From Eledone cirrhosa (Eukaryota): a stretch of DNA of 64,000 nt. The notes below the pieces were generated by a model that saw only the letters and a program-made list of their open reading frames with translations, searched no databases and was not told the origin of the DNA. This document shows, one piece after another, positions 22,574 through 64,000 of the stretch. The stretch lies in contig OZ024742.1 in assembly GCA_964016885.1 (NCBI GenBank), positions 98,952,001-99,016,000 on the forward strand. The letters run 5' to 3'. The translations under genes were made by a program, and so were the position numbers. Each line of letters opens with the position of its first letter. Position 1 is the stretch's first letter.

Positions 22574-22785
22574 GACGAAAGTGGATGTACGTTTTTTGAA
22601 GCTCCGTGAGTAAGCAATTTTTTGAGGATTAATTGTAGAGAATTGTTTATTTTTTGTACCGCTGAAGCATTATAAGACATTAATTTGTATCCTGTGAAGG
22701 AATAACTCATAATATTTGGGCCTTTTGGCCCAAATATTTGAACTTTATTTTGAAAAAAAATAATAATTTTTTTTCTCAAAAAAAC

Positions 22786-24696: not shown

Positions 24697-24725
24697 ACCT
24701 TTCCTCTCCCATTCATCCTGCCAGC

Positions 24726-27700
24726 ATGGCCATAAGAGTAGGAAGTTTAAATGTTCGTGGCCTGGGGTCGCCCTGGAAGCAAGGTCACTTGCTCAACGAC
24801 CTCAGGTCACTAGGAATGGATGTAATTGCCATCAGCGAGACCAGAATTTCCGACACACGCGCACTGGCGCCGATTTTCGACGATTATCAGATCTTTGCAT
24901 CTGTTAGTCGGCCGGGAATGGGAGGTGGAGTGGCTGTGCTGTTTAGGAAATGTCTGGATCTCGAGGTAAGGTCAATCTTCCGGGATCCTGACGGAAAGTT
25001 GGTGGTCCTGGACGTGAGCAATAGCGAAGGTGGTGCCTTTAGACTGGTGGCCGTCTACGCCCCTACTGGGGCCGGTCGGCCGGACTTCTTTAGGCGCCTG
25101 GAAAACTTTCTGCTTACGTCTCGCCCTTTACTGTTAATAGGGGATTGGAATGGCATCTTAGAAGCACGCTGGGATTGTGTGGGAGTATCTGATAGGAGCG
25201 GGGGGTGCAAAAGCCTCAAGTACCTGATCAGCCAGTTTCAACTGTCTGACAGGTACCGACTAGATTTCCCTAATGCGCCAGTATGGACCTGGACCAATCG
25301 CATAGGGTCATCTAGATCGTACATAGATAGGATTTTCATTAGGAAAAGAGATAGAAATAGTGTAGGATGTCCACATTTTAAAACGGTTGCCTATTCAGAT
25401 CACAAGCTTGTGATCTGTATGGTCGACCTAGATAAGACACGTAGGTTAGGACCTAGCTACTGGAAGCTAAACATGTCGTTTCCGGCACGTAAAGCTTACA
25501 GGGACCGGGTCAACAACTTAGTTAAGCAAAAGTTGACAGGGGGGGTTGTCAACAACAGGTGGTGGGGGGCACTCAAAAGAGAGATTAGAGCAACCTCGAT
25601 AGGATTTAGCAAAGAAGTAGCAATAGAGAAAAATAGAAAGGAGGAGGGGCTGATAGCTAAGTTAGACGAGGCTATTTGTAGTGGCATTGCAACAGACGTG
25701 CTAGCGGCGAGAATGGCACTAGACCATTTCTTCAATGCGAAACACGAAGGTTGCATTGTCAGAGCTAAGGCGCGTGCTCTGAGGAACGAGGGAACCAAAG
25801 CTGCCCGATGGGCTCGCTTTGCAGAGACGCAGCGTGGAAATAAAACCACAATTCGGTCTTTGACGGATCGAGATGGACACGAACTGAGCGATTCCAAGCA
25901 GATGTGTGAGGCCTTTCGCCAGCACTTTGCTCGATTGTTCGGGAGGATGGGTGAGTCGGAGACGGCGGCGGACTTCAGTCCCTACCTCGACGGCTTGCCA
26001 CGCCTCTCGACGGCCGACGCTGAGCGCTGCGAAGAGCCGATAACATCAGCCGAAATTCAGGACGCCCTTGTCGGCTGCTCGAGTCGCAAGTCACCCGGTT
26101 TGGATGGTCTGCCCTACGAGCTTTACGTAAATATGCCAGACTTGTTCTCCGATCTCCTCGAAGCGCTCTACTGCAACTGGCAGCAGAACGGGAGCATTCC
26201 CAGTTCTGTGAGCCGTGGCGTAGTGACGCTGATAAGGAAAGACGAGAACAAGAGGGACACACTAGATAATTTCAGGCCCATAACCCTGCTCAACACAGAG
26301 TTTAAGATTTTGGCCAAGGTGTTAGCGAAAAGGTTGGCGCTTGTCGTCAAAGATTTGGTTGGGGAGGCGCAAACTTGCGCAATCCCGACCAGGTCCATAC
26401 ACGACAACCTCCACCTCATGCGATACATCATAGAGAGGGTTGGGTGCAAACCTGGCTTCGGTGGGGCTCTGATCAATTTAGATCAATCGAAAGCATTCGA
26501 TAGGGTCGACCATCGGTACTTGGAGGCTGTCCTCGAGGCGGCTGGCTTCGGCCCCGTCTTCAGAAGCTGGATCGCTGCAATGTACAGCGGCATCCGCTCG
26601 GTGGTCAAAGTTAATGGCCACCTCTCGGAACCGTTTCAGATCTCTCGATCGGTCCGTCAAGGGTGCCCTCTCTCCTCACTTCTGTACGTATTGACTCTTG
26701 AGCCTCTACTGCGGAAGCTGGAGTTGTTGCAGGGCATCCCGCTCGAACCGGGACGTAGAAAGGCTGCGTCCGCTTATGCGGACGACATCACCGTGATGGT
26801 GTCGGACACCTCGGAAATCGAGGTGATCCGCACCCATTTGGAGGAATATGAAAGGTTGACGGGAGCAAAACTTAACCCGGAAAAGTCGGTGGGCTTGCAG
26901 CTCGGCACCTGGAGAGGCAAGTCCATGCCGTCCAACAGCGTCGTTGGGCGCTGGACAGACGGACCGGTAAAGTTGCTCGGGGTTTGGTTCGGACCAGACC
27001 TCCAGGTGGATAAGAATTGGGACGAGGTGACGAGCAGGATAGCCAACCTCACCCAGAAATGGGCTGAGAGAAAGCTATCACTGAAAGGGCGGGCGGAGGT
27101 GGCGAACGCGTACATCGCGTCCGTCATCTACTACCGCCTGACCGTCGTGCCTTGCCCCCGTCCACGCCTCGCCAATTTGGAACGGCTCCTTTTCAAATTT
27201 TTGTGGAGGGGACGGGTCCCGTTGGTGAGGCGGTCCATCTGCTGCCAGCACCCTCTTCGTGGAGGGCTGGGCATGCCGTGGCTAATGATGCGCAGACATG
27301 CGCTGAGGCTGCGACATCTCCAGATATTTTGCCTAAACGGTGAACAGGTGTGGTCGCCGTTTGTTAGACGGGCCTTTCCGCAGCTCATCTCTTTGACTGA
27401 GCTGCAGTCCTGGGTCAAGAAGAGACCGAGACTGGGCGACTGGCATCTGGAATGTTGCCAGGCGCTCACTGCACTCTGCAAGGTGGGCAATGCGGTCAGT
27501 GGAACTTCCACTCAAGATTTCTATAGAGGATTAGTGGAGGGCAAGTGCGATGACGTACTAGGAGAGGTTCTGGGCGTCAACGAAGTAGAACTGACCAGTA
27601 TGTTCCGGAGGACTTTCGAGCCGGGGACGATGGATAACTTCCAGAAATCCCTCGCTTGGCAGTGCTACCGGGGGGCGCTGCCGGTTCGGGATAAACTCTA

Positions 27701-28145
27701 CAGGCACGGAAGTGCTGTCAGACGAACCTGCCCGAGATGCGCGCAGAGCGACGAAACCGTTCTGCACGCACTCGTCCAGTGTCCGTGCATTGCTGACTTG
27801 TGGGGCTATGTCGAACAGCTATTGTCGCGTGTAGAACGGATCCGGCTATCGTCCGAGTCCATAGTGAAGATTGACCCGCCGCCTTCTTTTGGTCAGGAAG
27901 GGCAGGCAATTTTCCTCTGCCTGGTGGCAGTAGCGAAAGAGGTTGCATGGTGGACCAGGTTGAAAGGACTGAAGACAGACACTTTTCTCTTCGGCCAATC
28001 CCTCATCAACTTCTTCAAGTTTCACTTGGAAAGGAAGGTGAGGGTGGAGAGAGAAGTGCTGCCCCCCAGTACATTTACTGAAAGGTGGGTGAATGTGGCG
28101 AGAATGGCCCGCGTGAGTGGGCCTACTCTGATCATGCGCCTGTAG
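24726..28145 (+). CDS. LINE ORF2: APE endonuclease, reverse transcriptase and C-terminal zinc finger (Tx1/L1 clade)
   Basis: 1139 aa; EN motifs SLNVRGL, ISETR, GDWN, YIDRIF, YSDH; YWKLN; RT motifs [37 protein letters not shown]; CPRC..ETVLHALVQC. Confidence 0.96.
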   Translation: MAIRVGSLNVRGLGSPWKQGHLLNDLRSLGMDVIAISETRISDTRALAPIFDDYQIFASVSRPGMGGGVAVLFRKCLDLEVRSIFRDPDGKLVVLDVSNSEGGAFRLVAVYAPTGAGRPDFFRRLENFLLTSRPLLLIGDWNGILEARWDCVGVSDRSGGCKSLKYLISQFQLSDRYRLDFPNAPVWTWTNRIGSSRSYIDRIFIRKRDRNSVGCPHFKTVAYSDHKLVICMVDLDKTRRLGPSYWKLNMSFPARKAYRDRVNNLVKQKLTGGVVNNRWWGALKREIRATSIGFSKEVAIEKNRKEEGLIAKLDEAICSGIATDVLAARMALDHFFNAKHEGCIVRAKARALRNEGTKAARWARFAETQRGNKTTIRSLTDRDGHELSDSKQMCEAFRQHFARLFGRMGESETAADFSPYLDGLPRLSTADAERCEEPITSAEIQDALVGCSSRKSPGLDGLPYELYVNMPDLFSDLLEALYCNWQQNGSIPSSVSRGVVTLIRKDENKRDTLDNFRPITLLNTEFKILAKVLAKRLALVVKDLVGEAQTCAIPTRSIHDNLHLMRYIIERVGCKPGFGGALINLDQSKAFDRVDHRYLEAVLEAAGFGPVFRSWIAAMYSGIRSVVKVNGHLSEPFQISRSVRQGCPLSSLLYVLTLEPLLRKLELLQGIPLEPGRRKAASAYADDITVMVSDTSEIEVIRTHLEEYERLTGAKLNPEKSVGLQLGTWRGKSMPSNSVVGRWTDGPVKLLGVWFGPDLQVDKNWDEVTSRIANLTQKWAERKLSLKGRAEVANAYIASVIYYRLTVVPCPRPRLANLERLLFKFLWRGRVPLVRRSICCQHPLRGGLGMPWLMMRRHALRLRHLQIFCLNGEQVWSPFVRRAFPQLISLTELQSWVKKRPRLGDWHLECCQALTALCKVGNAVSGTSTQDFYRGLVEGKCDDVLGEVLGVNEVELTSMFRRTFEPGTMDNFQKSLAWQCYRGALPVRDKLYRHGSAVRRTCPRCAQSDETVLHALVQCPCIADLWGYVEQLLSRVERIRLSSESIVKIDPPPSFGQEGQAIFLCLVAVAKEVAWWTRLKGLKTDTFLFGQSLINFFKFHLERKVRVEREVLPPSTFTERWVNVARMARVSGPTLIMRL

Positions 28146-28628
28146 GCTGGTGAATTCGAGAAGGAGAGGGGTGCCCTTCCCGGGTGCCCTAGGAGCGTCG
28201 GGTGGCTCAGGACTGGTGGGGTGCTTGAGTCAACCCTGGGTGGTGATCCCTCTTATTGGGGAACTTTCATTGTTGTATTTTATTGTTATTTTGTTTTTTT
28301 TGTTATTTATACTTACTCGATCTCTATGTAAACCCCCACTGTCCCTGTCTATTGTGTTGTCCCCTATATGTCGGCCCTTGTGGCCAATAAATGAAATCAT
28401 TATTATTATCATTATTGACGAAAGTGGATGTACGTTTTTTGAAGCTCCGTGAGTAAGCAATTTTTTGAGGATTAATTGTAGAGAATTGTTTATTTTTTGT
28501 ACCGCTGAAGCATTATAAGACATTAATTTGTATCCTGTGAAGGAATAACTCATAATATTTGGGCCTTTTGGCCCAAATATTTGAACTTTATTTTGAAAAA
28601 AAATAATAATTTTTTTTCTCAAAAAAAC

Positions 28629-30540
28629 ATGGCGGAGCCACGCCCCCTAGAGGCGGGTCTGCTGTCGTGCAACGGCGACTTGAGCGTTGAGAGGAGAGGT
28701 GAGGCGAGGAGTGCCACCAGCACGAACGTGAGCAGCGACAGTGCCAGCACCAACGGGCCGAGCGGCGCGGAAGGTGGTAACAGCGACAACACCAACACCA
28801 ACAAGCCGAACAGCGCAGAAGGTGGTAATAGCGAGAGCACCAACAAAACGAACAGCACAGAGAGTAATAGTAGCGACAGCAACAGCACCAACAAGGCCAA
28901 CAGCACAGAGGGTAACCACGACACAGGGGAGAACAACAACAGCAATAGCAGCAGCAACACCAACAAGAACAACAACAGTGACAACACCAACAAGAACACC
29001 TTCGCTGCTGTGGCAGCGGCTAAAAGGAGACCATGCTACAGCATCGACTTAAACAACAGAGAGGAAAAGTTGGCCCAGGCCTGGAAAATCATAAATCAAG
29101 AGCAGACCTGGGCAAAATTAACTGTCCCGGCAGAAGCCATTGAGGCAGTGGAAAAAAGAACGGTGCATTTCAGATGCATCTCAGTAGAGACAAAGAGGGC
29201 AGCGATAATCGCCCAAGCTGATATAGAAGCCGCACTTAAATACATCAGAGAGGACACAGACTTCATAGAGAGGGGCAGGCAATACGGCACCGTTTCGGTG
29301 CTGTTCAAGTCTGAAGCCCTCGCTGTGAAGCATTCAATGACCCCTTGCAAAACCAGCAAGGTCATAATGTACCCCTCCCACATGGGAAAACGAATAGCAC
29401 GTGTGCGCATTCCCAGGATTCCACCAGGACTTGATATGTGGTGGCTCCTGGGTTGCGTAATCGTGGAAGGAACGGATACAGTCCCGGTAGAGGCAACGAG
29501 AACTGCCAGGGACGACTGGTCCGGGGTTGATCTGGAGATACTGCTCCAAATCAGACCCGAAAACGTAAAAGCAATCCCGGACCACATCCGCCTCCAAAAC
29601 GGGAGGGTGTTGCATATAATGACTGAGGGCAAAAGGCCGCATTGTTTCCTTTGTGGGGAAACGACACACTTGCGAGCCTTCTGCCCTCAACTGCCGAAAA
29701 GCGCAAGGGGTCGAAAGATTCCACTGCTGGCGACGCCGGGACAAGGACCACCAGCAACACCGTCAACAATGGAACCACCAAAATTGCACACCCAGGGGGG
29801 AAACGAGGAAAGCTCTCCCATTCCCCCTCCCCCCCAAAATACACACACGAACAAGAACATAAACACTCACTCAGACACAAACACGCTCACAGCCACAGAC
29901 CCCTCATCCTCCAGCAGTGAAGATGAGGGAAAACCAAAGTCCCCCAAAATACAAAAAACAAAACACAAAAAAAAAAAGAAATCCACAAAGCACAAACACC
30001 CCCATAAAAAAAAATACACACACCACCCACACAAACATTTTCCCCACAGCATCACCAACACAACCACCAAAATCCCCCAAACGCAAACAAGCTAAACAGA
30101 CACAAGAACAAATAGACACACAAACATCAGAAACTACAGACACCCCACCCACAACAAACGCAGACACAATAGAAACAACACTAACAAAGCTATCACCACC
30201 ACAATCACACGAACAAATAAAACCCGAGCAACAAAACATTAAAAACTTCGTGCTTGCCAGAAGGGCCAACAAGGAATTGATGGCCCATGTAGCACGAAGC
30301 ACAAACATCGAAAAAGACGGGGAAACATTTGAAGCGAGCACATTTCGCGTACCAGATAATTTGCTTCTGATGCGAATGTCGCTCGCTTCATACAAAGAAA
30401 TTCGAAAGAGCTTTCCTCGGGATGTGGGAACCCCGAACGTAAAACCCACGTCAAGACTATTAAAGGGGTTCCCAAAAGAAACCCCACAAACCATGGAGGT
30501 CGAACCACCCGACCTTCACAAGACCCCGGAAGGTAAGTAA
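28629..30540 (+). pseudogene. LINE ORF1 with a +1 frameshift in a poly-A run (possibly a sequencing error)
   Basis: Matches ORF1 of copy 1 (a few substitutions) until the A-run near 29967-29977, which has one extra A; the C-terminus continues in ORF 29917..30540. Confidence 0.8.
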
Positions 30541-30569
30541 ACCTTTCCTCTCCCATTCATCCTGCCAGC

Positions 30570-33500
30570 ATGGCCATAAGAGTAGGAAGTTTAAATGTTC
30601 GTGGCCTGGGGTCGCCCTGGAAGCAAGGTCACTTGCTCAACGACCTCAGGTCACTAGGAATGGATGTAATTGCCATCAGCGAGACCAGAATTTCCGACAC
30701 ACGCGCACTGGCGCCGATTTTCGACGATTATCAGATCTTTGCATCTGTTAGTCGGCCGGGAATGGGAGGTGGAGTGGCTGTGCTGTTTAGGAAATGTCTG
30801 GATCTCGAGGTAAGGTCAATCTTCAGGGATCCTGACGGAAAGTTGGTGGTCCTGGACATGAGCAATAGCGAAGGTGGTGCCTTTAGACTGGTGGCCGTCT
30901 ACGCCCCTACTGGGGCCGGTCGGCCGGACTTCTTTAGGCGCCTGGAAAACTTTCTGCTTACGTCTCGCCCTTTACTGTTAATAGGGGATTGGAATGGCAT
31001 CTTAGAAGCACGCTGGGATTGTGTGGGAGTATCTGATAGGAGCGGGGGGTGCAAAAGCCTCAAGTACCTGATCAGCCAGTTTCAACTGTCTGACAGGTAC
31101 CGACTAGATTTCCCTAATGCGCCAGTATGGACCTGGACCAATCGCATAGGGTCATCTAGATCGTACATAGATAGGATTTTCATTAGGAAAAGAGATAGAA
31201 ATAGTGTAGGATGTCCACATTTTAAAACGGTTGCCTATTCAGATCACAAGCTTGTGATCTGTATGGTCGACCTAGATAAGACACGTAGGTTAGGACCTAG
31301 CTACTGGAAGCTAAACATGTCGTTTCCGGCACGTAAAGCTTACAGGGACCGGGTCAACAACTTAGTTAAGCAAAAGTTGACAGGGGGGGTTGTCAACAAC
31401 AGGTGGTGGGGGGCACTCAAAAGAGAGATTAGAGCAACCTCGATAGGATTTAGCAAAGAAGTAGCAATAGAGAAAAATAGAAAGGAGGAGGGGCTGATAG
31501 CTAAGTTAGACGAGGCTATTTGTAGTGGCATTGCAACAGACGTGCTAGCGGCGAGAATGGCACTAGACCATTTCTTCAATGCGAAACACGAAGGTTGCAT
31601 TGTCAGAGCTAAGGCGCGTGCTCTGAGGAACGAGGGAACCAAAGCTGCCCGATGGGCTCGCTTTGCAGAGACGCAGCGTGGAAATAAAACCACAATTCGG
31701 TCTTTGACGGAGCGAGATGGACACGAACTGAGCGATTCCAAGCAGATGTGTGAGGCCTTTCGCCAGCACTTTGCTCGATTGTTCGGGAGGATGGGTGAGT
31801 CGGAGACGGCGGCGGACTTCAGTCCCTACCTCGACGGCTTGCCACGCCTCTCGACGGCCGACGCTGAGCGCTGCGAAGAGCCGATAACATCAGCCGAAAT
31901 TCAGGACGCCCTTGTCGGCTGCTCGAGTCGCAAGTCACCCGGTTTGGATGGTCTGCCCTACGAGCTTTACGTAAATATGCCAGACTTGTTCTCCGATCTC
32001 CTCGAAGCGCTCTACTGCAACTGGCAGCAGAACGGGAGCATTCCCAGTTCTGTGAGCCGTGGCGTAGTGACGCTGATAAGGAAAGACGAGAACAAGAGGG
32101 ACACACTAGATAATTTCAGGCCCATAACCCTGCTCAACACAGAGTTTAAGATTTTGGCCAAGGTGTTAGCGAAAAGGTTGGCGCTTGTCGTCAAAGATTT
32201 GGTTGGGGAGGCGCAAACTTGCGCAATCCCGACCAGGTCCATACACGACAACCTCCACCTCATGCGATACATCATAGAGAGGGTTGGGTGCAAACCTGGC
32301 TTCGGTGGGGCTCTGATCAATTTAGATGAATCGAAAGCATTCGATAGGGTCGACCATCGGTACTTGGAGGCTGTCCTCGAGGCGGCTGGCTTCGGCCCCG
32401 TCTTCAGAAGCTGGATCGCTGCAATGTACAGCGGCATCTGCTCGGTGGTCAAAGTTAATGGCCACCTCTCGGAACCGTTTCAGATCTCTCGATCGGTCCG
32501 TCAAGGGTGCCCTCTCTCCTCACTTCTTTACGTATTGACTCTTGAGCCTCTACTGCGGAAGCTGGAGTTGTTGAAGGGCATCCCGCTCGAACCGGGACGT
32601 AGAAAGGCTGCGTCCGCTTATGCGGACGACATCACCGTGATGGTGTCGGACACCTCGGAAATCGAGGTGATCCGCACCCATTTGGAGGAATATGAAAGGT
32701 TGACGGGAGCAAAACTTAACCCGGAAAAGTCGGTGGGCTTGCAGCTCGGCACCTGGAGAGGCAAGTCCATGCCGTCCAACAGCGTCGTTGGGCGCTGGAC
32801 AGACGGACCGGTAAAGTTGCTCGGGGTTTGGTTCGGACCAGACCTCCAGGTGGATAAGAATTGGGACGAGGTGACGAGCAGGATAGCCAACCTCACCCAG
32901 AAATGGGCTGAGAGAAAGCTATCACTGAAAGGGCGGGCGGAGGTGGCGAACGCGTACATCGCGTCCGTCATCTACTACCGCCTGACCGTCGTGCCTTGCC
33001 CCCGTCCACGCCTCGCCAATTTGGAACGGCTCCTTTTAAAATTTTTGTGGAGGGGACGGGTCCCGTTGGTGAGGCGGTCCATCTTCTGCCAGCACCCTCT
33101 TCGTGGAGGGCTGGGCATGCCGTGGCTAATGATGCGCAGACATGCGCTGAGGCTGCGACATCTCCAGATATTTTGCCTAAACGGTGAACAGGTGTGGTCG
33201 CCGTTTGTTAGACGGGCCTTTCCGCAGCTCATCTCTTTGACTGAGCTGCAGTCCTGGGTCAAGAAGAGACCGAGACTGGGCGACTGGCATCTGGAATGTT
33301 GCCAGGCGCTCACTGCACTCTGCAAGGTGGGCAATGCGGTCAGTGGAACTTCCACTCAAGATTTCTATAGAGGATTAGTGGAGGGCAAGTGCGATGACGT
33401 ACTAGGAGAGGCTCTGGGCGTCAACGAAGTAGAACTGACCAGTATGTTCCGGAGGATTTTCGAGCCGGGGACGATGGATAACTTCCAGAAATCCCTCGCT

Positions 33501-33989
33501 TGGCAGTGCTACCGGGGGGCGCTGCCGGTTCGGGATAAACTCTACAGGCACGGAAGTGCTGTCAGACGAACCTGTCCGAGATGCGCGCAGAGCGACGAAA
33601 CCGTTCTGCACGCACTCGTCCAGTGTCCGTGCATTGCTGACTTGTGGGGTTATGTCGAACAGCTATTGTCGCGTGTAGAACGGATCCGGCTATCGTCCGA
33701 GTCCATAGTGAAGATTGACCCGCCGCCTTCTTTTGGTCAGGAAGGGCAGGCAATTTTCCTCTGTCTGGTGGCAGTAGCGAAAGAGGTTGCATGGTGGACC
33801 AGGTTGAAAGGACTGAAGACAGACACTTTTCTCTTCGGCCAATCCCTCATCAACTTCTTCAAGTTTCACTTGGAAAGGAAGGTGAGGGTGGAGAGAGAAG
33901 TGCTGCCCCCCAGTACATTTACTGAAAGGTGGGTGAATGTGGCGAGAATGGCCCGCGTGAGTGGGCCTACTCTGATCATGCGCCTGTAG
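30570..33989 (+). CDS. LINE ORF2 (APE endonuclease, RT, zinc finger), intact
   Basis: 1139 aa with a few substitutions versus copy 1 (e.g. DQSK to DESK); YADD retained. Confidence 0.95.
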   Translation: MAIRVGSLNVRGLGSPWKQGHLLNDLRSLGMDVIAISETRISDTRALAPIFDDYQIFASVSRPGMGGGVAVLFRKCLDLEVRSIFRDPDGKLVVLDMSNSEGGAFRLVAVYAPTGAGRPDFFRRLENFLLTSRPLLLIGDWNGILEARWDCVGVSDRSGGCKSLKYLISQFQLSDRYRLDFPNAPVWTWTNRIGSSRSYIDRIFIRKRDRNSVGCPHFKTVAYSDHKLVICMVDLDKTRRLGPSYWKLNMSFPARKAYRDRVNNLVKQKLTGGVVNNRWWGALKREIRATSIGFSKEVAIEKNRKEEGLIAKLDEAICSGIATDVLAARMALDHFFNAKHEGCIVRAKARALRNEGTKAARWARFAETQRGNKTTIRSLTERDGHELSDSKQMCEAFRQHFARLFGRMGESETAADFSPYLDGLPRLSTADAERCEEPITSAEIQDALVGCSSRKSPGLDGLPYELYVNMPDLFSDLLEALYCNWQQNGSIPSSVSRGVVTLIRKDENKRDTLDNFRPITLLNTEFKILAKVLAKRLALVVKDLVGEAQTCAIPTRSIHDNLHLMRYIIERVGCKPGFGGALINLDESKAFDRVDHRYLEAVLEAAGFGPVFRSWIAAMYSGICSVVKVNGHLSEPFQISRSVRQGCPLSSLLYVLTLEPLLRKLELLKGIPLEPGRRKAASAYADDITVMVSDTSEIEVIRTHLEEYERLTGAKLNPEKSVGLQLGTWRGKSMPSNSVVGRWTDGPVKLLGVWFGPDLQVDKNWDEVTSRIANLTQKWAERKLSLKGRAEVANAYIASVIYYRLTVVPCPRPRLANLERLLLKFLWRGRVPLVRRSIFCQHPLRGGLGMPWLMMRRHALRLRHLQIFCLNGEQVWSPFVRRAFPQLISLTELQSWVKKRPRLGDWHLECCQALTALCKVGNAVSGTSTQDFYRGLVEGKCDDVLGEALGVNEVELTSMFRRIFEPGTMDNFQKSLAWQCYRGALPVRDKLYRHGSAVRRTCPRCAQSDETVLHALVQCPCIADLWGYVEQLLSRVERIRLSSESIVKIDPPPSFGQEGQAIFLCLVAVAKEVAWWTRLKGLKTDTFLFGQSLINFFKFHLERKVRVEREVLPPSTFTERWVNVARMARVSGPTLIMRL

Positions 33990-44116: not shown

Positions 44117-44150
<34 letters not shown>

Positions 44151-44154
<4 letters not shown>

Positions 44155-44818
44155 AATCTATTGATATAATTATTATACTCTATGAGGGTCATGCTTTCAA
44201 TAAAAACATACGCAGAATATTAGAAAAATTGAAATGAAGTAGAAAGCATGAATGGAATAATAACACAACATAGTGCCTAAGAACGCTATAAAAAACAAAC
44301 AAGAACAAAACCAATAGTATACATGAATATACCCCCACCCACCACCACCACCACCACCACCACCACCTCCACCACGCACGCACATATATAAGATATAAAA
44401 AAATTAGGAAAACAACTAGTGACAAGAAAGTAAGAGAGAAGAGGGAGAGAAAACACGAATTTATTGCATGCGCAGTCCAGGTGCACAGCTTATAAAGACT
44501 AGAGCGTGTAAATCAGAAGAACGAGGAGGCACAACATTCCAAAGGTATTCACTGAAGAGGTCGCATAATGTGTAACGGAAGACCTTTGACAATTAAATAC
44601 TGAACAACCTTCCGGGTATTAAACTAAATGACCGAAGATTATGATAAGAAATTAAAGAACAATTTAACTGGGCATATTATTGGCAGCATTAACGTCCCAA
44701 GCAAAAACAATATATATTTTTCACATGAAACAATCTTGCAAATAGAGTACGAAAACTAAGCATATATATATATATATATATAGGAATACACACACACACA
44801 CATACACAGATATATATG

Positions 44819-44849
<31 letters not shown>

Positions 44850-45170
44850 GGGGTAACAAGTTATCGTTTTCGGTATTCCAGTTAGAGGTTGTGAGTACTC
44901 TGTACTATGGAGGATTTTAGAGTACGGCGTTGTTTGACTCAACAAGAATTTTCCGTAGTTAGGTAGCGAGTTTGCGAGAATTCCCATGTAGGTTATTATT
45001 GGAGAATTAATAGTGAAAGAGTGAAGATATACATGGTCGGCTGTACAAAAGGGTTTTATTTACAGTATTAACCATTGTTTCATTGATCAGGTGTGTCTAA
45101 AGGCCGCAGATCACCTGAAATTGCGTCATTCGATCTTTTCGTTCAGCCGACCATGTTATTCTTCACTATT

Positions 45171-45176
<6 letters not shown>
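44151..45176 (+). repeat. ~1 kb segment duplicated at 49086-50114 (copy A)
   Basis: Near-identical sequence at offset ~4935 with only a few substitutions and microsatellite length changes. Confidence 0.92.
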
Positions 45177-46150
<974 letters not shown>

Positions 46151-46152
<2 letters not shown>

Positions 46153-48610
46153 ACTTTGAATAACTTTGAAATGTTTTGGCCAGTATTGGCCCAGGCCATG
46201 TCTAACTTAATAGCACCACCTGGCGAAGTCTTTCAATTCAGGATTTGGGCACCATGGCCCATTCGAGAAGAGAATTACTGTTTGCGGAGACATATCCGGG
46301 TGTGGGTGGTTTGTCCGGGATTACTTGGAGGAATTTGTCCAAAGACTTCTTGAATTTTGTGTGGTCAGTTTCTGTTTTGACGTGTCCTGGTGTGATGTTG
46401 AAGAGAGCAGGGCCGATTGAGGTGAAATAATTGTGCCGTATTGTTGTTATGAGTTGCGATTTAGATTTTTGAATGGGACGGATAGCACGGGGCCCAAGCC
46501 TTGGGTGTATCTTGAAGGCGATGCCAACATCATTTGGGCAGTGATGATGGAACATTTTCCACATCATGCAGATAATATAACGCTCACGGCGACGTTGGAG
46601 TGAGTAAAGTTTCAGGTTTTCCAATCGACCCCAGTAGTCAAGGTCTGACATGCCATCTATCTTTTTCGTGATTGCCCTTTGAGGAGCTTCAAGTTTCATG
46701 ATACTTTGTTTCGTGTGGGGAGACCACAGTGGACAACAGTATTCAAGGTGTGGTCGGGCGAAAGTAGAGAAGAGAAGGATAATGGTGCGGGAATCTCTCG
46801 ACTGGAAGGTTCTGAGGATCCAGGAACACATTCTGCGGGCCATGTCAACTTTGCTGCTTATATGCGTGGTCCAGCTTATGTTGCTGTCCACGGTTACTCC
46901 CAAGTCTCTGATGTTGTTAGATGCCACGAGAGTTTCCCCGGAGGGAAGGGAGTACGGGAGTTTCAGAGCATCCTCTTTTCCAAAGTGGATCAGTTCGAAT
47001 TTGTCTTCGTTCAGTAACATGTTGTTCTTTTCTGCCCATTGGGTAACAGCCAGTAGGTCTGACTGAAGGCTTATCCGGTCATCCACGCCATTGATGACCT
47101 TTTGGAGCTTGGAATCATCAGCGAAAATTTTAATGTTGCTGTGTTTGATGATGTCAGTGATGTCATTAATATAGATGATAAAGAGAAGTGGGCCCAACAC
47201 AGTGCCTTGTGGCACCCCACTACTGACTTTGGCTGGGCTTGATTTGACTCCCTCAACTACAACATGTTGGGTTCTGTTTGACAGGAAGCTCTTGATCCAC
47301 TGCAGCAGCTTTCCAGTGACACCAATATTGGACAGCTTTCTCAGTAGAATGTTATGATCAACCCTGTCAAAGGCCTTGCTGAAATCAAGGTAGATAACAT
47401 CAGTGTTGGAACCCTCTCCCAATGCTCTCAAAATGTCATCAAAGTGATGCAGTAGTTGCGTCAGGCAATCCCTTCCATTACGGAATCCATGCTGGTTGGA
47501 GTTCAGCATATTGTTACTCTCAAGGAAGTGGGTCATTCGCGATCTCACCACTCGCTCAAATACCTTAATGATATGAGAGGTGAGTGAGATTGGACGGTAA
47601 TTCACGGCAAGGGATTTGTTTCCCTTTTTGAAAACTGGGACAACAGACTGGGATAGAAGGTTTTCTGGCACATATCCAGCATCCAGTGAGTTCCGCCACA
47701 GATTGGCAAGAGGAGAAGCAAGTTGGTGTTGACACGCCTTCAAGACACAAGCAGGGAACCTATCGGGACCTACTGCTGAATTATGCTTGATTTCCTTTAT
47801 TGCCGCCAAGACATCAGGGGCGCCAAACGTTATGTCCGATAAGGTGTAATGGGGAGTAACATCGCCGATACAGCCCAGATCGGCCATATCAGGATTGCTG
47901 AAAACAGAGCAGTATTGTTTCTGCAGTATCTCACCCATGGTTTTAGCATTGTCTTGAAGAGTGCCATTTTCATCAATTAGAGGGCCAACAGTAGAGCCAG
48001 TGATTTTGTGTTTTTTTGCAAATGAAAAGAACACTTTGGGATTGAGTTTGATCTTCTCAATGGCCCAGGCCTCTTCAGCTCTTCTCTGATTGTTGATGAG
48101 GGACATTATGTTGTTTTGGAGGTTATGTTTTTTAATCTCTAGTGATGAAATGGCAGTCAAGTTGATGTGTTGCTGCTGACAGTATTTCAGCTTGTTGATT
48201 TTTTTGTTCGTTCTCTTAATTTTTCTGATGAGCGTTTTTCTATTTCTAGGGATTCTGCTCTTAGATTTGTTTATAGTTCTTAATGGGGTGTGTTTAGCAC
48301 ATATGTTTGTAACAGTGTCCACGAATGTCTGCCAGGACTTTTTGATGTTAGTGGGTGTATGAGTGTGCGTGAAGGACCAGTCGACATGTGCAAGATCATG
48401 ACTGATCGCTTCCCAGTTTGCATTGTGGAAATCCATAGCGTCAAACGGATGGACAGGAGAGATGACATTGGGTTTGTATATTGGACGGTGGAATCTCAGA
48501 TCACAGAGAACAATGTCATGATCAGAGAGTAGAGTTTTCTCCACTGCAATATTGTGGATATTGTCAGTGTGATTGCTGGAAATTAAGTCTAGGACGTTTT
48601 TGTGGCACCT
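46151..48610 (-). mobile_element. CR1-clade LINE, 5'-truncated, young
   Basis: Uninterrupted ORF2 remnant, short 3'UTR and tandem tail (TTCAAAGTTA)2; both ends abut TA tracts. Confidence 0.9.
46238..48610 (-). CDS. CR1-type ORF2 remnant (end of endonuclease plus complete RT), open frame but 5'-truncated
   Basis: [81 protein letters not shown]; the upstream YI repeats of the called ORF are microsatellite. Confidence 0.85.
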
Positions 48611-54000
<5,390 letters not shown>

Positions 54001-54268
54001 AGTATGAAGAGAGAAGAAACATTTAGATATAATTAGTAATAAAATGTATCATACCTAAACTGCTCCTAGATTCCTCGACTACGTAGTTTCGTGGCATAAA
54101 CAAAAACAATACATCATAAAGATATAGAGTCCTTGCGAGGTCTGCCGACTTATCAAGGGGATACCTCGTTTTACTAGTCTCAAGAACGCGTCTACACGAC
54201 GTGAGAAAGAATCCCAAAAGGCGGAGGGGGAGATAGTCACGCGATATAACGGTCGAGAAATATATATA

Positions 54269-54332
<64 letters not shown>

Positions 54333-54337
<5 letters not shown>

Positions 54338-54984
54338 AATTAAGTCAAAAATGTACATCTACATATGCATACTGAAATACTAGTGTGTATATGAATACAC
54401 ACACGTATACATATGTAGGTGTACCAAGTCTTTCACTGGTCGCTTTACAGTGAGCGGCCCAGCTATTCTGTATGTAAACACACAGACAAACCGGTTTTTA
54501 GAGTCAAACTGGTTTTCGGGGGGAACACCTTCCCTCCATTCTCCAGAAAGCCAGACAAGGAATATTGGACTAGTTTCGTTGTTGTTACAACTCATCAGCA
54601 ATATTTACCTATCTACCGGCCTTTCTGGAGAATTGTAAAAGCACATATCGTTATATGCTTTTTCTATGAAAATTAGTAGTGGGCAGACTAATTTGCATAG
54701 AGTGTGAGTACGCACCGGTTCAGCGGAGACGATAAAAACAAATAACGAAACGAAATTAAATTTCGTTTCGTTTGTAACTCACTTTTGTATGACTGACGCT
54801 TAAACAATTAAGTCAAAAATGTACATCTACATATGCATACTGAAATACTAGTGTGTATATGAATACACACACGTATACATATGTAGGTGTACCAAGTCTT
54901 TCACTGGTCGCTTTACAGTGAGCGGCCCAGCTATTCTGTATGTAAACACACAGACAAACCGGTTTTTAGAGTCATACTGGTTTT
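54333..54984 (-). mobile_element. ~1.4-unit (468 bp period) hammerhead- and octamer-bearing element; diverged relative of the adjacent satellite
   Basis: TAAACAATTAAGTCAAAAATG... at 54333 and 54801; GCAGACTAATTTGCAT matches GCAGCCTAATTTGCAT of the satellite; hammerhead at 54561-54605. Confidence 0.8.
54561..54605 (-). ncRNA. Canonical minimal type I hammerhead ribozyme (GUC triplet)
   Basis: Reverse complement: AATATTG-CTGATGA-GTTG TAACAA CAAC-GAAA-CTAG-TC-CAATATT; 7-bp stem I and perfect core. Confidence 0.88.
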
Positions 54985-55139
54985 ACATATATATATATAT
55001 ATATACATATATATGTATATATAAGTTGAAAAAAATGAAAACGAAATTTCATTTCTCACTCTTAGTATGGCACTTACTTAAATGTAAGTATGTATGTATA
55101 CGTACATACATATATGTATACAGACGTACAGTAGCATGC

Positions 55140-55173
<34 letters not shown>

Positions 55174-55331
55174 GCATACAGGTACACATACATATATGCA
55201 CGCATCAGTTTAGCCGACGTTTATTATAACGCAGCTTTGTTCGCTTGTTTGTCAACAAATCGAACAGCCTGAATTTATGCCATACGGTGTTAAGGCAACC
55301 ACGTCACCTTTTTGTTCAACACTGACACAGG

Positions 55332-55376
55332 AACGATGTACTAGTTTCAAGCTTGTTAGCTATCATCAGCACCGTT
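55332..55376 (-). ncRNA. Minimal type I hammerhead, satellite unit 1 (further copies at 55812-55856, 56286-56330, 56747-56791, 57257-57301, 57747-57791, 58208-58252)
   Basis: Reverse complement: AACGGTG-CTGATGA-TAGCT AACA AGCTT-GAAA-CTAG-TA-CATCGTT. Confidence 0.78.
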
Positions 55377-55449
55377 TACCCATCTGCCAGATAGTTGAAC
55401 GTTCGAAAGTATATACTTTCCTTATGAAAATTAACGGCTGAGCAGCCTA

Positions 55450-55457
55450 ATTTGCAT
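55450..55457 (-). promoter_or_regulatory. Octamer motif ATGCAAAT (candidate POU/Oct site), upstream of the hammerhead in every full unit
   Basis: ATTTGCAT on +; conserved at 54691-54698 and 11841-11848 despite flank divergence. Confidence 0.45.
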
Positions 55458-55610
55458 ATTGAGTGAGTTAAATCGGTCAGGCATACCGAAAACGACAAGT
55501 TGAAAAAAATGAAAACGAAATTTCATTTCTCACTCTTAGTATGGCACTTACTTAAATGTAAGTATGTATGTATACGTACATACATATATGTATACAGACG
55601 TACAGTAGCA

Positions 55611-55653
<43 letters not shown>

Positions 55654-56093
55654 GCATACAGATACACATACATATATGCACGCATCAGTTTAGCCGACGT
55701 TTATTATAACGCAGCTTTGTTCGCTTGTTTGTCAACAAATCGAACAGCCTGAATTTATGCCATACGGTGTTAAGGCAACCACGTCACCTTTTTGTTCAAC
55801 ACTGACACAGGAACGATGTACTAGTTTCAAGCTTGTTAGCTATCATCAGCACCGTTTACCCATCTGCCAGATAGTTGAACGTTCGAAAGTATATACTTTC
55901 CTTATGAAAATTAACGGCTGAGCAGCCTAATTTGCATATTGAGTGAGTTAAATCGGTCAGGCATACCGAAAACGACAAGTTGAAAAAAATGAAAACGAAA
56001 TTTCATTTCTCACTCTTAGTATGGCACTTACTTAAATGTAAGTATGTATGTATACGTACATACATATATGTATACAGACGTACAGTAGCATGC

Positions 56094-56125
<32 letters not shown>

Positions 56126-57025
56126 GCATACAGGTACACATACATATATATGCACGCATCAGTTTAGCCGACGTTTATTATAACGCAGCTTTGTTCGCTT
56201 GTTTGTCAACAAATCGAACAGCCTGAATTTATGCCATACGGTGTTAAGGCAACCACGTCACCTTTTTGTTCAACACTGACAAAGGAACGATGTACTAGTT
56301 TCAAGCTTGTTAGCCATCATCAGCACCGTTTACCCATCTGCCAGATAGTTGAACGTTCGAAAGTATATACTTTCCTTATGAAAATTAACGGCTGAGCAGC
56401 CTAATTTGCATATTGAGTGAGTTAAATCGGTCAGGCATACCGAAAACGACAAGTTGAAAAAATGAAAACGAAATTTCATTTCTCACTCTTAGTATGGCAC
56501 TTACTTAAATGTAAGTATGTTTGTATACTTACATACATATATGTATACAGACGTACAGTAGCATGCATATATATATATATACACATATGCATACAGGTAC
56601 ACATACATATATGCACGCATCAGTTTAGCCGACGTTTATTATAACGCAGCTTTGTTCGCTTGTTTGTCAACAAATCGAACAGCCTGAATTTATGCCATAC
56701 GGTGTTAAGGCAACCACGTCACCTTTTTGTTCAACACTGACAGAGGAACGATGTACTAGTTTCAAGCTTGTTAGCTATCATCAGCACCGTTTACCCATCT
56801 GCCAGATAGTTGAACGTTCGAAAGTATATACTTTCCTTATGAAAATTAACGGCTAAGCAGCCTAATTTGCATATTGAGTGAGTTAAATCGGTCAGGCATA
56901 CCGAAAACGACAAGTTGAAAAAAATGAAAACGAAATTTCATTTCTCACTCTTAGTATGGCACTTACTTAAATGTAAGTATGTATGTATACGTACATACAT
57001 ATATGTATACAGACGTACAGTAGCA

Positions 57026-57098
<73 letters not shown>

Positions 57099-57535
57099 GC
57101 ATACAGGTACACATACATATATGCACGCATCAGTTTAGCCGACGTTTATTATAACGCAGCTTTGTTCGCTTGTTTGTCAACAAATCGAACAGCCTGAATT
57201 TATGCCATACGGTGTTAAGGCAACCACGTCACCTTTTTGTTCAACACTGACACAGGAACGATGTACTAGTTTCAAGCTTGTTAGCTATCATCAGCACCGT
57301 TTACCCATCTGCCAGATAGTTGAACGTTCGAAAGTATATACTTTCCTTATGAAAATTAACGGCTGAGCAGCCTAATTTGCATATTGAGTGAGTTAAATCG
57401 GTCAGGCATACCGAAAACGACAAGTTGAAAAAAATGAAAACGAAATTTCATTTCTCACTCTTAGTATGGCACTTACTTAAATGTAAGTATGTATGTATAC
57501 GTACATACATATATGTATACAGACGTACAGTAGCA

Positions 57536-57588
<53 letters not shown>

Positions 57589-58489
57589 GCATACAGGTAC
57601 ACATACATATATGCACGCATCAGTTTAGCCGACGTTTATTATAACGCAGCTTTGTTCGCTTGTTTGTCAACAAATCGAACAGCCTGAATTTATGTCATAC
57701 GGTGTTAAGGCAACCACGTCACCTTTTTGTTCAACACTGACAAAGGAACGATGTACTAGTTTCAAGCTTGTTAGCTATCATCAGCACCGTTTACCCATCT
57801 GCCAGATAGTTGAACGTTCGAAAGTATATACTTTCCTTATGAAAATTAACGGCTGAGCAGCCTAATTTGCATATTGAGTGAGTTAAATCGGTCAGGCATA
57901 CCGAAAACGACAAGTTGAAAAAATGAAAACGAAATTTCATTTCTCACTCTTAGTATGGCACTTACTTAAATGTAAGTATGTTTGTATACTTACATACATA
58001 TATGTATACAGACGTACAGTAGCATGCATATATATATATATACACATATGCATACAGGTACACATACATATATGCACGCATCAGTTTAGCCGACGTTTAT
58101 TATAACGCAGCTTTGTTCGCTTGTTTGTCAACAAATCGAACAGCCTGAATGTATGCCATACGGTGTTAAGGCAACCACGTCACCTTTTTGTTCAACACTG
58201 ACAGAGGAACGATGTACTAGTTTCAAGCTTGTTAGCTATCATCAGCACCGTTTACCCATCTGCCAGATAGTTGAACGTTCGAAAGTATATACTTTCCTTA
58301 TGAAAATTAACGGCTAAGCAGCCTAATTTGCATATTGAGTGAGTTAAATCGGTCAGGCATACCGAAAACGACAAGTTGAAAAAAATGAAAACGAAATTTC
58401 ATTTCTCACTCTTAGTATGGCACTTACTTAAATGTAAGTATGTATGTATACGTACATACATATATGTATACAGACGTACAGTAGCATGC

Positions 58490-58520
<31 letters not shown>

Positions 58521-58613
58521 CACATATGCATACAGGTACACATACATATATGCACGCATCAGTTTAGCCGACGTTTATTATAACGCAGCTTTGTATATGT
58601 ATATATATATATA

Positions 58614-58810: not shown

Positions 58811-58815
<5 letters not shown>

Positions 58816-61800
58816 ATACTTGGGGAGGGTCATATTTGTCAGAATTAATAACAGAACCCACTCACTGTTTGGTTGATTTTCGCTTTTGTGTCTTTTATAT
58901 CGGTTAATTTAATTTATTCGGTCCTCAATATTACCATTGACTGACCAACGGTCAAAAATACAGATACAATATAGACACAAACACATATATATAGTCTATC
59001 AAAGTTCTTTCGTTGCACATCTGCAACATCGTCAGTGTTGCTATTATGTTTCCTCCCGTTGCATTGTATGTTTACGCCACCTTTATTTAGTCTGTTTGTT
59101 TGTTTATTTTTTTGTCTTTTCTGCAACAACAACAATAATAACGGTAGTAGTAATATAAACAATAACTCTGAGTATAGTAATAACAGCTATAATAGTAATA
59201 GCCATAACAATAACAATAGCAGGAGAGTGAGAAATAGTAATAATGGTAATACTATTAACGTTAGACAGAACAACAACAACAACCTCAATAATAATAATAA
59301 TAATAGAAACATTAACTACAGACAGAGCAATAGCGACCACAGTAGTAATAGCGGTAACAATACGAATAACAACAACAACCACAGTGGTAATAATTGAAAT
59401 AATATATGTAGCAACATTAATGATAGACACACAAAACAAGAAACATAATAAAAGTAACAACCACAATGGTAGAAATAACAGTAACAACAACAATAACGGT
59501 GGAGAAAACAACAACAATACACCTAACAATCACAGCAACAATACATCTAGCAATCATATTAACAATACATCTAACAATCACAGCAACAATACATCTAGCA
59601 ATCATAACAATAATAATAATGCTAATGATAGGAACAACAACAACCACCATAATAACAATAATAGCAACACACCCAACTATGACGGTAGATATATTGACAA
59701 CCCCTTAGAGAAACTATTCTTCAACCCAGCTGACAAAACATATAAGATGGGTAATATCTATCCTACGAGGTTACCCTTTAATAAAAGAGTTTGCATACCT
59801 CAACAAATAGATGACGAGACAGAGGCACAGTTCACCATAGCTAGAAATAAGATTAGACAAATAGTAGACCGGTATACTAAGAGACAGAGCAGACCGAGGT
59901 CCAACAACTTGGGAGGAAACCTGTAGAAGGCTTGGTTAGCCTCAAGCAGCACACACGGGATGGTGAGGTAGTGTGTTACCCGCGGATAAGTCTGGTAGGA
60001 TGTCAATAGACAACATGCCGAACTACATCAAGGCAATGCAATCCCACATCACCAACACGAGCGAAATTGCATAGCAAATACATGATGGGAGAGAGAAAAT
60101 ACTCAACGCTCAGATGATGATGTGGACCGACATGCTAAAGCCAAGCAGACGCACTGCCAACAACTTCCAGGCATCCAACAATGGCATACCACTCCTGTAT
60201 AGGCTCCGCAAAGACCACAAGAAAGTCGACGACTCGACAACAGGATCACCAACAAGACCTGTATGCGGAGCAATATAGCTAACAACTACAGGATCTCCTA
60301 CTTCCTCTCAATGGTTATACGCCCCATAATCAAGATGACCCCAGATGTATGTGACAGTACAGAGGAACTCCTCGGCAGAATTAGTGAGTGCAACAAAAAC
60401 AGGAACCTATCCAACTCCATAATAGGCAGTATGGATGTGCTATCACTGTACCCATCCATTAACATTGATTTTGCTGTGGAAAAATGAGTGGACATGATCA
60501 TTGAGAGTGAGGTGGAGTTCTGCGACGTCGACACAGACGAACTGGGCCTCCTACATAGACTTACCTACAACACTGACTACCTAGACAGCCATGACCTTAG
60601 ACGTGTCTGCCCCAGTAGACACATAAGAGGTAGACCCCCACCATAACCTCAATGGCAAAAAAGACTCCCATGGGAAGGTGGATTGGGTGGACCAAAGCTA
60701 TACGGAGCCCCCAAAACAATGATCAGGTAAGAAAAATGGTCGCACATGCAATAGGGACTAGTATCAAAACTACCCTAAAGGGCCACATATTCAAGTTCAA
60801 CTAGAAGATCTACACCCAAAATGAGGGAACAGCTATTGGCGTCAGCATAGCTGGTGACGTTGCCAACCTTTTTATGGCATGGTGGGAAAGGAGACTCAAA
60901 GATCTCCTTGATGAGAGCTCCATAGACCTCATCATGTACTCTCGTTACGTAGACGACATCAATATAATAATAAGGACATCCCCACAAGAGAGCACGAAAA
61001 AGTTTGATTTAGAACGTAGCACAATGGAAAGCATCCAGCAGATAGGTAAATCCATACACCAGAGTATAACTGTAACTATCGACGCCCATCCTAACACCCT
61101 AACAATAGACTACCTGTATTAGACACGGAACTCTGGATTAACACTATAGACGAGAGAGCCCAAATTCTCCACTCACACTATGCTAAACCCATGGCCTCCA
61201 AATATCTGATACTCAAAAACTCAGCATGTACAATAGTGCTAAGTTTAATATTCTGATCGCAGACATGGTACGAGTGATGAAGAACGTGTCCCGCATGTGC
61301 GACCCAACAGAAATGGAAAGACACATCCAACACTTCATCAACCGCATGCAGTTCTATGTCTACAACCAAAGAGACAGAATCAGAGTATACGAAGGAGCCA
61401 CGGAGAAGTATAAGACCTTCATAGAACTGGACATGAAAGGAATGTTCCCATTATACAGGAGCAAATCATGGAATAGCTTAGATAGGACTAGACATAAGAT
61501 AGGGAAAGCCACCCCATGGTACGACAACCAGAGGTAGCAGAGTGTCATGTTTGTGGACGCTACCCCTGGAGGGAAATTAGCTAACCAGTGTAGAAAGGCC
61601 CAGAGAAAGACCCACTTAAAGATTAAGGTGGTAGAAAAGCCAGGAACCACCATAAAGTCCCTGATCAGCAAAACCTACCCTTTTAAGAAAACCCACTGTA
61701 CTAATAGGAAATGTATTATATGTAGAGTAAACCCCCGGATAAACTGTAAAACTAGAAACGTAGTCTATAGCATAAGATGTAAAGAGGGTACTTGCAGAAA

Positions 61801-62599
61801 CATGACAACAACATACATAGGCGAGACAGCTCGTAGCATAGGTGAAAGGATTGACCAACACTGGGGGAACTAAAAGGACGAAAAAACGGTTCAGTACTAT
61901 ACGAACATGCCAGACAACAATGCAACTGTAACATATACAATATAGAAGTTAGAATAATATCTAAACATAGAAATGACCCAGCAGATAGGCAAATCAGAGA
62001 GGCCAGCGAGATAGAACTTAGGAGGCCAAGGCTAAACAGAAAAAATGAATGGAATAGCAACCACACCCAAACAAACAACACTGATCTAAGCGAAGTATAA
62101 ATAGATAGATAGATAAATAATTATAAATAGATAAATACATACGCAAGCGCAATAACAGCAAACACATATAAACACACACTAGTAAATTAGATAGAATACA
62201 TTAACCAATACACAGTCACCCAAACAAGAACATCCATCAAACGAAACACTATACGAAAACGCATGCGCAGAGAAGACGAAAAAATAAACAAATAAATAAA
62301 TAAATAAACTGACTAAATAAAGATGGCGTAAACATACAGTGAAACGGGAGGAAACATAATAGCAACACTGACGATGTTGCAGATGTGCAACGAAAGAACT
62401 TTGAAAGACTATATATATGTGTTTGTATTTTGTATCTGTATTTTTGACTGTTGGTCAGTCAATGGCAACATTGAGGAACGAATAAATTAAATTAACCGAT
62501 ATAAAAGACACATAAGCGAAAACGAACCAAACAGTGAGTGAGTTCTGTTACTAATTCTGGCAATATTCCACAAATATGACCTTCCCCAAGTATAACAAT
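58811..62599 (+). mobile_element. Penelope-like element (Neptune-type), decayed, with inverted terminal repeat arrangement
   Basis: 58811-59113 is the reverse complement of ~62280-62599; RT and GIY-YIG remnants between them; hammerhead-like CTGACGA...GAAA in both repeats. Confidence 0.88.
59700..62098 (+). pseudogene. Penelope-like RT plus GIY-YIG endonuclease pseudogene
   Basis: GSMDVLSLYPSI, G.AIG..IAGDVANLFM, YSRYVDD, FVDATPGGKLA, Cys linker HCTNRKCIIC, NVVYSIRC...TYIGETARS..ER; many stops and frameshifts; boundaries approximate. Confidence 0.88.
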
Positions 62600-62656
62600 A
62601 TTTGTTTCGACACACGATTTCATATCAAAAAGCTCGCAAAACTAATTCATCGCCGT

Positions 62657-62714
<58 letters not shown>

Positions 62715-63032: not shown

Positions 63033-64000
63033 ATAATAACTAGAAATTGATTAACATATAGATAAACATGAAAAATCACAGGAGATAATTTTTACAAGTG
63101 TGTAACCACACATACCTAAGTAACTAGATAAAGTTGAGCAGAACTTCAAAAATAGATATGATTAATCTTTCCTGTATATATTCCATTAAAGAAATATATT
63201 TCACCAATTAATCGGATGATAAACCACGGAAGTGGAGACTTGGATTTTCAACAAGGAAGAAGTTCCAGCGAACCGTATTTACACTTCAAGTTCAAATCAG
63301 TGACTGGCCAGCACCACTTGTTGCATTTACTAGAAATACACACATCATACTAGCTTCGTCCCAGTGGCGTGAATAGGGTTATGGACAACTAGAAACAGCA
63401 GTCGAGTCCTTTCAACAGAGTTAGCCCTACAATTAAGGAGCCGTATTTATATATCTATATCCAAAATTGAGATAAATCAAATGAATTTAATCTAAATCAA
63501 AGTTATGGGTGTCATGCCAGAAAGACATGCGCCATATCACCCGCAAAATAAACTCTAAGATTCTAACGAGTAGGTCCGAGCATTTTATAATAACTAGAAA
63601 TTGATTAACATATAAATAAACATGAATAATCACAGGACATAATTTTTACAAATGTGTAACCACACATAGCTAGGTAGGTAACTAAATAAAGTTGAGCAGA
63701 ACTTCAAAAATAGATACCTTATAATATGATTAATATTCCCTGTATATATTTCATTAAAGAAATATATTTCACCAATTAATCGGATGGTAAACCACGTCTG
63801 AAAATCCTAGTCTCCACTTCCGTGGTTTACCATCCGATTAATTGGTGAAATATATTTCTTTAATGAAATATATACAGGGAAGATTAATCATATTATAAGG
63901 TATCTATTTTTGAAGTTCTGCTCAACTTTATTTAGTTACCTACCTAGCTATGTGTGGTTACACATTTGTAAAAATTATCTCCTGTGATTATTCATGTTTA
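63033..64000. repeat. Partial tandem repeat (~554 bp period) followed by an inverted copy forming a long palindrome that runs off the window
   Basis: ATAATAACTAGAAATTGATTAAC... at ~63033 and ~63587; 63820-64000 is the near-perfect reverse complement of ~63616-63796. Confidence 0.85.

Follow-up and report, generated by a model that had tools for sequence, protein, structure and literature searches.

Introduction

Published accounts already describe hammerhead repeats that carry a promoter, in newts (a Pol II promoter of snRNA type) and in schistosomes (a Pol III promoter). The promoter of newt satellite 2, reportedly described by Coats and colleagues in 1994, is said to contain an octamer and a PSE, and the promoter of the Schistosoma SM-alpha repeat is tRNA-like. 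Both systems resemble in layout the repeats described here. Newt satellite 2 is a tandem hammerhead repeat with an snRNA-type promoter within the unit, and in SM-alpha the promoter precedes the hammerhead and the tandem layout is needed for it to be retained (PMC2220036, PMC6765202). The promoters differ in class, as the newt repeat is described as a Pol II unit and SM-alpha as having a Pol III promoter of SINE type, whereas the units studied here carry a U6-class element, a TATA box and a U1/U2-like box, an upstream snRNA-type arrangement (PMC2220036, PMC6765202). We detected no link between the newt repeat and the at least six diverged families examined here.

The closest described elements are the metazoan non-LTR retrozymes, which, like the present element, are built of non-coding tandem units that are short and AT-rich and bear a type I hammerhead, and for which Penelope-like elements (PLEs) have been proposed as the mobilising partner (PMC7229834; 10.64898/2026.07.22.740005). 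These papers report abundant RNA, and the text available to us names no promoter for animal retrozyme transcription; in PMC7229834 the word appears twice, both times for T7. An internal promoter of the kind considered below is likewise not described in that text, supplements aside (PMC7229834; 10.64898/2026.07.22.740005).

PLE insertions are described as having an inverted repeat and a tail at one end (PMC8557442), a signature traced by Frangieh et al. to two internal reverse transcription starts that flank the tail (PMC11167929). PLE hammerheads with a short palindromic stem III are thought to cleave as dimers (PMC6765202).

Results

The window (the whole 64-kb stretch of DNA analysed, from Eledone cirrhosa) was scanned with a structural descriptor, which placed a minus-strand type I minimal hammerhead at 54561-54605, inside a 468-bp unit. 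This bears out the preliminary description, which had proposed a sister ribozyme in an element of 468-bp period, its core and GGUAAA..UUCC flanks shared with those of the neighboring satellite. The features of the locus are as follows.

54334-54984, minus strand: sister retrozyme insertion, a full 468-bp unit (54334-54801) plus a 5′-truncated piece (54802-54984, unit positions 286-468), in (TA)n
54561-54605, minus strand: type I minimal hammerhead, predicted cut after C54568 (GUC), stem III palindrome ACUAGU
54539-54632, minus strand: extended stem I with a UA bulge, closing the ribozyme, predicted from the fold and the HH9 alignment, with GGUAAA..UUCC flanks
54688-54699, minus strand: TATGCAAATTAG, a letter-for-letter match to the -78 element of host U6/U6atac/MRP promoters, equalled by 1 of 2000 shuffles
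54679-54682, minus strand: CCAC, where other families and U1/U2 have TCAG (-55 to -57); weak in the sister family
54651-54657, minus strand: TATA-like box CATATAA, 42 nt past the start of the -78 element, with a predicted transcription start near 54627
54732-54801, minus strand: "tail" of 70 nt bounded by the family's two fixed insertion ends, with a long hairpin and, at its end, a T5 run; internal in the window copy
55023-58594, minus strand: array of the related satellite family, about 7.5 units of about 475 bp, with seven hammerheads of GUA triplet, each accompanied by the same element, TCAG and TATATAC
11840-11965, plus strand: dispersed satellite-family copy, with the element at 11840-11851 and the hammerhead at 11923-11965

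The sister hammerhead reads AAUAUUG CUGAUGA GUUGUAACAACAAC GAAA CUAG UC CAAUAUU and contains the CUGANGA, GAAA and NUH core together with stems I and II. Nine type I hammerheads were found in the window: the sister copy, seven satellite copies (minus strand, 55332-58252) and the plus-strand copy at 11923. A model built from these nine gave no further strong match in the 64-kb window. The Rfam HH9 family aligned to 54545-54616 with an E-value of 1.4e-8 and 41 bits, below its gathering score of 52; at gathering scores, Rfam gave zero matches anywhere in the 64-kb window.

The sister element spans 1.39 units (period 468, at 54334 and 54802) and holds one ribozyme only, where Li et al. require two to call a copy "active" (10.64898/2026.07.22.740005). 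No open reading frame of at least 150 aa was found across 54334-58594, and the GC content of the bin containing the element is 0.35. Read along the unit, the order is T-run at the end of the tail, -78 element, TCAG-like box, TATA, hammerhead, hairpin-rich body, first fixed end and tail. The element had been placed directly upstream of the satellite; it does lie to its left on the plus strand, but on the strand of the ribozyme it is downstream, with 37 bp of TA between them. By these testable sequence features, the element belongs to the non-LTR retrozymes.

We compared the stems of the two families pair by pair. The compensatory changes proposed for stem I (AAUAUUG/CAAUAUU versus AACGGUG/CAUCGUU) are present, with three double changes. 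In stem II, paired changes were also found (three double, one lost pair), but the register given earlier was off by one: the sister stem II is 5 bp, GUUGU/ACAAC, and that of the satellite is U.U plus AGCU/AGCU. Stems I and II together thus account for six double changes and one lost pair between the families. Two further details were read correctly in the preliminary description, as the copy at 11923-11965 has ACGAUG/CAUCGU (with a CUGACGA core) and an A to G change in satellite unit 3 (56286-56330) leaves a G-U pair in stem II. Since the element fits a known class, non-LTR retrozymes, the point about paired changes is right but, taken alone, ordinary. The preliminary description recognised neither this class nor the snRNA-promoter elements of the unit.

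In an alignment of 20 intact hammerheads from six families, 13 of 15 pairs changed on both sides, and the covariation score was 0.717, compared with 0.215 in shuffles (0 of 500 as high) and at most 0.189 with slid partners; since these rows were hand-picked for intact pairing and are mutually related, the percentages are inflated. The earlier proposal that selection acts on the hammerhead fold is supported by this covariation and by the near-invariant core of the sister family (below). Stem III is self-complementary in every family, though its sequence and length differ (ACTAGT, ATGCAT, ACATGT, AATCGATT, ACAGCTGT, ATAGCTAT and ACAGCGCTGT), and we regard this variable yet palindromic stem as the most telling feature for selection on the fold. 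The predicted free energy of the active-type fold of the sister hammerhead is +0.6 kcal/mol as a monomer and -15.6 kcal/mol as a dimer, close to the best cofold at -16.0, which fits the dimer cleavage described for PLE hammerheads (PMC6765202). The 6-nt palindromic stem III likely needs a dimer. We infer from the sequence that the sister hammerhead may be catalytically active.

The family is large. Searches of the 3.0-Gb assembly for the core CTGANGA..GAAACTAGTH gave 40,405 matches versus 19 for the reversed control, in agreement with the claim that this is not a chance motif, and the exact sister core form with GUC gave 1,699. The sister unit has at least 169 matches on many contigs, and the full-length ones are 97-100% identical, with 40 of 886 candidates scored. 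The triplet, earlier described as canonical GUC, is so in the window copy but not family-wide: 64 distinct near-full copies, a sample of non-independent copies that leans toward close relatives of the window copy, carry GUU (33), GUC (27) or GUG (4). About 83% of depth reads GUU in run X1, a contig-only run of unrecorded kind; the four contig sets compared in all yielded sequence variants only. Thus, GUC is a subfamily state.

Among the 64 copies, the core varies by 0-0.5% and stem I by 0.5-0.7%, compared with 4-6% for the flanks, and one stem II pair flips from U-A to A-U in 22. The -78 element varies by 0.26% and the TATA by 0%.

The copies are inserted in (TA)n and consist of tandem arms, often accompanied by an inverted one. 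Insertion ends fall in two classes, at unit positions of about 468 and about 70, and nearly all run into (TA)n. All 16 distinct two-armed insertions have one end of each class (16 insertions from 17 rows, L002 and L007 being one insertion; only insertions with one end per strand were counted, single-arm loci excluded). The satellite family has the same two end classes, about 52-56 nt apart, and the tandem-plus-inverted layout also occurs in a third family. With PLEs these insertions share the inverted 5′ arm, a tail at one end, a target that is AT-rich or a microsatellite, and the palindromic stem III; the tail (70 nt in the sister family, about 52-56 nt in the satellite family) is longer than the 30-40 nt of the PLE papers (PMC8557442, PMC11167929, PMC6765202). 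Unlike PLEs, the retrozyme has no ORF and carries snRNA-promoter motifs.

The 5′ junctions are scattered round the whole sister unit, and 10 of 59 fall within the promoter region (entries at unit position 1 or 3 are boundary artefacts). A 5′ junction inside the promoter implies that the template included the promoter and was longer than a cut-to-end fragment. Junctions did not pile up at the cut or the predicted start in the sister family (8 of 59 at positions 235-260, 3.6 expected, any-window p 0.8), and none of 57 satellite-family junctions fell there.

Together, these features make it likely that the element is a non-LTR retrozyme, that is, a non-autonomous Penelope-like element. The genome contains a high-copy PLE family with at least 150 matches and open frames of up to 1,304 aa. 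Retrozyme and autonomous PLE terminal repeat showed no homology for the one PLE family compared, and other PLE families exist in the genome; by comparison, 21 of 57 Xenopus retrozyme families are described as homologous to an autonomous PLE terminal repeat.

A decayed member of the high-copy family lies in the window at 58811-62657. It encodes an RT, a CxxC linker and, at the C terminus, GIY-YIG; its inverted ends measure 315 bp, its tail is about 58 nt long, and near 62368 there is a weak hammerhead core. We rejected it as the direct parent, as it has no sequence similarity to the retrozyme; the hammerhead core in its terminal repeat is another one (GAAAGAAC), and the -78 element is missing there. 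Hydra-like PLE pieces beside some copies were also set aside, as TA repeats separate these pieces from the copies.

The window contains several other features. At 54005-54260 lies part of a different element, also inserted in (TA)n; it is 98% identical to a 595-bp repeat of tandem-plus-inverted layout (L224:1-1513) with a 72-nt tail and contains GAAAC-TACGTA-GTC, a palindrome-bearing half hammerhead, but CTGANGA is missing and Rfam gave no meaningful match. Two tandem, near-identical LINE copies, each with an intact-looking 1150-aa endonuclease/RT frame, occupy 22684-33989, and an older broken copy lies at 14326-18748. A long RT-bearing frame on the minus strand (46238-48600) has TA arrays on either side and duplicated flanks (44120-46152 and about 49274-51000). 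A palindromic (fold-back) repeat fills 63040-64000, and a sequence that resembles it by eye is found next to a family D copy in L253.

We considered whether the hammerheads might have no catalytic activity and simply ride along in a satellite spread by DNA-level mechanisms. Some family arrays reach about 30 units, 4 of the 64 sister copies carry GUG, 8 of 9 predicted Xenopus retrozymes are described as not cleaving in vitro, and insertion of PAc in vitro is described as not needing cleavage (PMC11167929), all as this explanation would have it. It does not account for the core invariance and compensatory changes over six families, and the fixed ends and inverted arms point to reverse transcription. 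We consider it improbable.

Apart from the ribozyme, the best-kept block between the sister and satellite families is TATGCAAATTAG. About 100 nt upstream of the ribozyme, TATGCAAATKAG equals the element at -78 in five host Pol III genes (U6, U6atac and MRP). In the host, U6 (three types), U6atac and RNase MRP have TATG[CG][AT]AAT[TG]AG at -77 to -79 and TATA at -30, and the element is absent from the upstream regions of all eight distinct U1/U2. The host promoter set comprises only these five genes; left out of it were U6/U6atac hits without the element (L079, L097, L098, L101, L102 and L115-L118), which look like retrocopies or rearranged promoters. A matrix of the five host sites, whose match was noticed after the fact, scores 18.8 in both the sister and satellite units, a score equalled by 1 and 0 of 2000 shuffles, respectively.

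The element followed by CTGANGA 70-92 nt later had 27,337 matches genome-wide versus 3 for the control. Without the usual stem II of the two big families, 133 matches versus 1 remained. From the 100 listed of these 133, the first 30 plus 52 regions unlike the satellite family gave 84 hits; adding the two window units brings the set to 86 elements, which fall into 33 clusters. A hexamer resembling TATA, for which the query did not ask, was present at an offset of 41-48 in 17.3 of the 33 clusters, compared with 1.6-4.0 in five control windows. A complete hammerhead was found in 38 of the 86, eight of them copies in one duplicated region; the other 48 are decayed or chance matches. Eight copies with promoter and hammerhead (L174-L181, G000:C1:143.3-143.8 Mb) lie about 50-105 kb apart in a large segmental duplication.

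Among 11 representatives, identity was 0.84 in the TATA and 0.34-0.35 in the flanks on either side. When these were aligned on the TATA, 9 of 11 had YCAS at -55 to -57 (chance about 0.03 each) and 5 of 11 had exactly TCAG. In the host, TCAG at about -56 is present in 8 of 8 U1/U2 genes and in none of the five Pol III genes, and in the sister family CCAC takes this place. Since a U6-class element is combined with a U1/U2-like TCAG and a TATA, the promoter looks hybrid. At least six diverged families have this arrangement, and their stem III sequences, though different, are all palindromic.

In host U1/U2 genes, AATTA was seen by eye near -88, TCAGT lies at -56 and the box at -30 is TATA-like; no distal octamer of vertebrate style was found within 300 bp of U1/U2. 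In the host Pol III genes, the -78 element is octamer-like.

Several observations count against the promoter reading or complicate it. The element-to-TATA distance is 42 nt for the sister family and 43-44 nt for most others, with 46 nt in two singletons and 48 nt only in family G; host genes have 47-49 nt. T5/T7 runs require read-through if the promoter is to be copied, which is hard for Pol III. T4-run depletion after the predicted start was not significant (217 and 493 of 2000 shuffles as extreme). Both motifs fall within hairpins of the predicted RNA fold, and RNA structure could account for part of their conservation.

These observations bear on an explanation in which the element is an ordinary retrozyme, transcribed by passive host read-through, and the motifs are RNA signals (hairpins for the PLE protein) or the relic of one ancient capture. 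The strong folding of the whole units (z -13.5 and -9.7), with both motifs in hairpins, agrees with such a role, as does the departure of the spacing from that of U6, and the families could have one common ancestor. However, the motif strands are fixed while their partner strands and the spacers diverge to about 35% identity. The 12-mer is an exact match to that of the host promoter, with the same orientation and a TATA after it, and young copies still conserve it. We find it unlikely that the motifs are only RNA signals or a relic, and favor a captured promoter that is likely functional.

For such a promoter, we lean slightly to Pol III over Pol II, since among the host genes only those of Pol III have the -78 element, and in three families the unit ends in a T-run, ahead of the promoter. 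Alternatively, Pol II could recognise the promoter of this same element as snRNA-type, in the manner of newt satellite 2, and its transcripts would then be long multimers unaffected by the T-runs. The distribution of TCAG at -56, common to U1/U2 and missing from the five Pol III genes, suits Pol II, and host U1/U2 likewise carry an AT-rich, TATA-like box at -30. For this polymerase the T5/T7 runs would be no obstacle, and the newt provides a precedent (PMC2220036, PMC6765202). Yet the motif that is best conserved belongs to Pol III genes only, CCAC stands in place of TCAG in the sister family, and a T-run ahead of the promoter recurs in three families. We regard this Pol II reading as possible and rather doubtful.

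Discussion

The window copy is probably a young member of a non-coding tandem family with a conserved minimal hammerhead and snRNA-type promoter motifs, a likely non-autonomous PLE that likely drives its own transcription. In the mechanism we propose, host snRNA factors would start transcription about 30 nt past the TATA box, and read-through transcripts would span tandem units. Hammerhead dimers, paired via their palindromic stem III, would cut these multimeric transcripts, yielding unit-length, probably circular RNA that carries the next promoter. A Penelope-like RT/GIY-YIG protein would then nick AT-rich DNA, and copying would begin at either side of the tail and run beyond one unit. Since copying would exceed one unit, each new insertion would regain a promoter before a ribozyme; ribozyme and tandem layout together could thus let an external promoter survive retrotransposition.

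More broadly, we suggest, with somewhat less than even confidence, that these families form a Penelope-mobilised superfamily whose captured hybrid snRNA promoter is carried in its own RNA by means of cleavage and tandem or circular templates, and that this superfamily came to this solution separately from newt satellite 2. Our searches of the open-access literature, supplements aside, met with no account of retrozymes that carry a U6-class or hybrid snRNA promoter. What appears to be new here is the presence of such motifs ahead of retrozyme hammerheads.

The letter-for-letter match to host snRNA promoters makes the transcription of these retrozymes directly testable. In the proposed cycle, the hammerhead gains a concrete job, that of freeing a unit that holds the next promoter. 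The fixed tail ends link retrozymes to the internal initiation of PLEs via insertion structure, not homology. More speculatively, tens of thousands of snRNA-type promoter copies could compete for host factors. If our model is correct, these elements would have a route to self-transcription that is closed to ordinary SINEs and has been kept in at least six families and about 27,000 copies.
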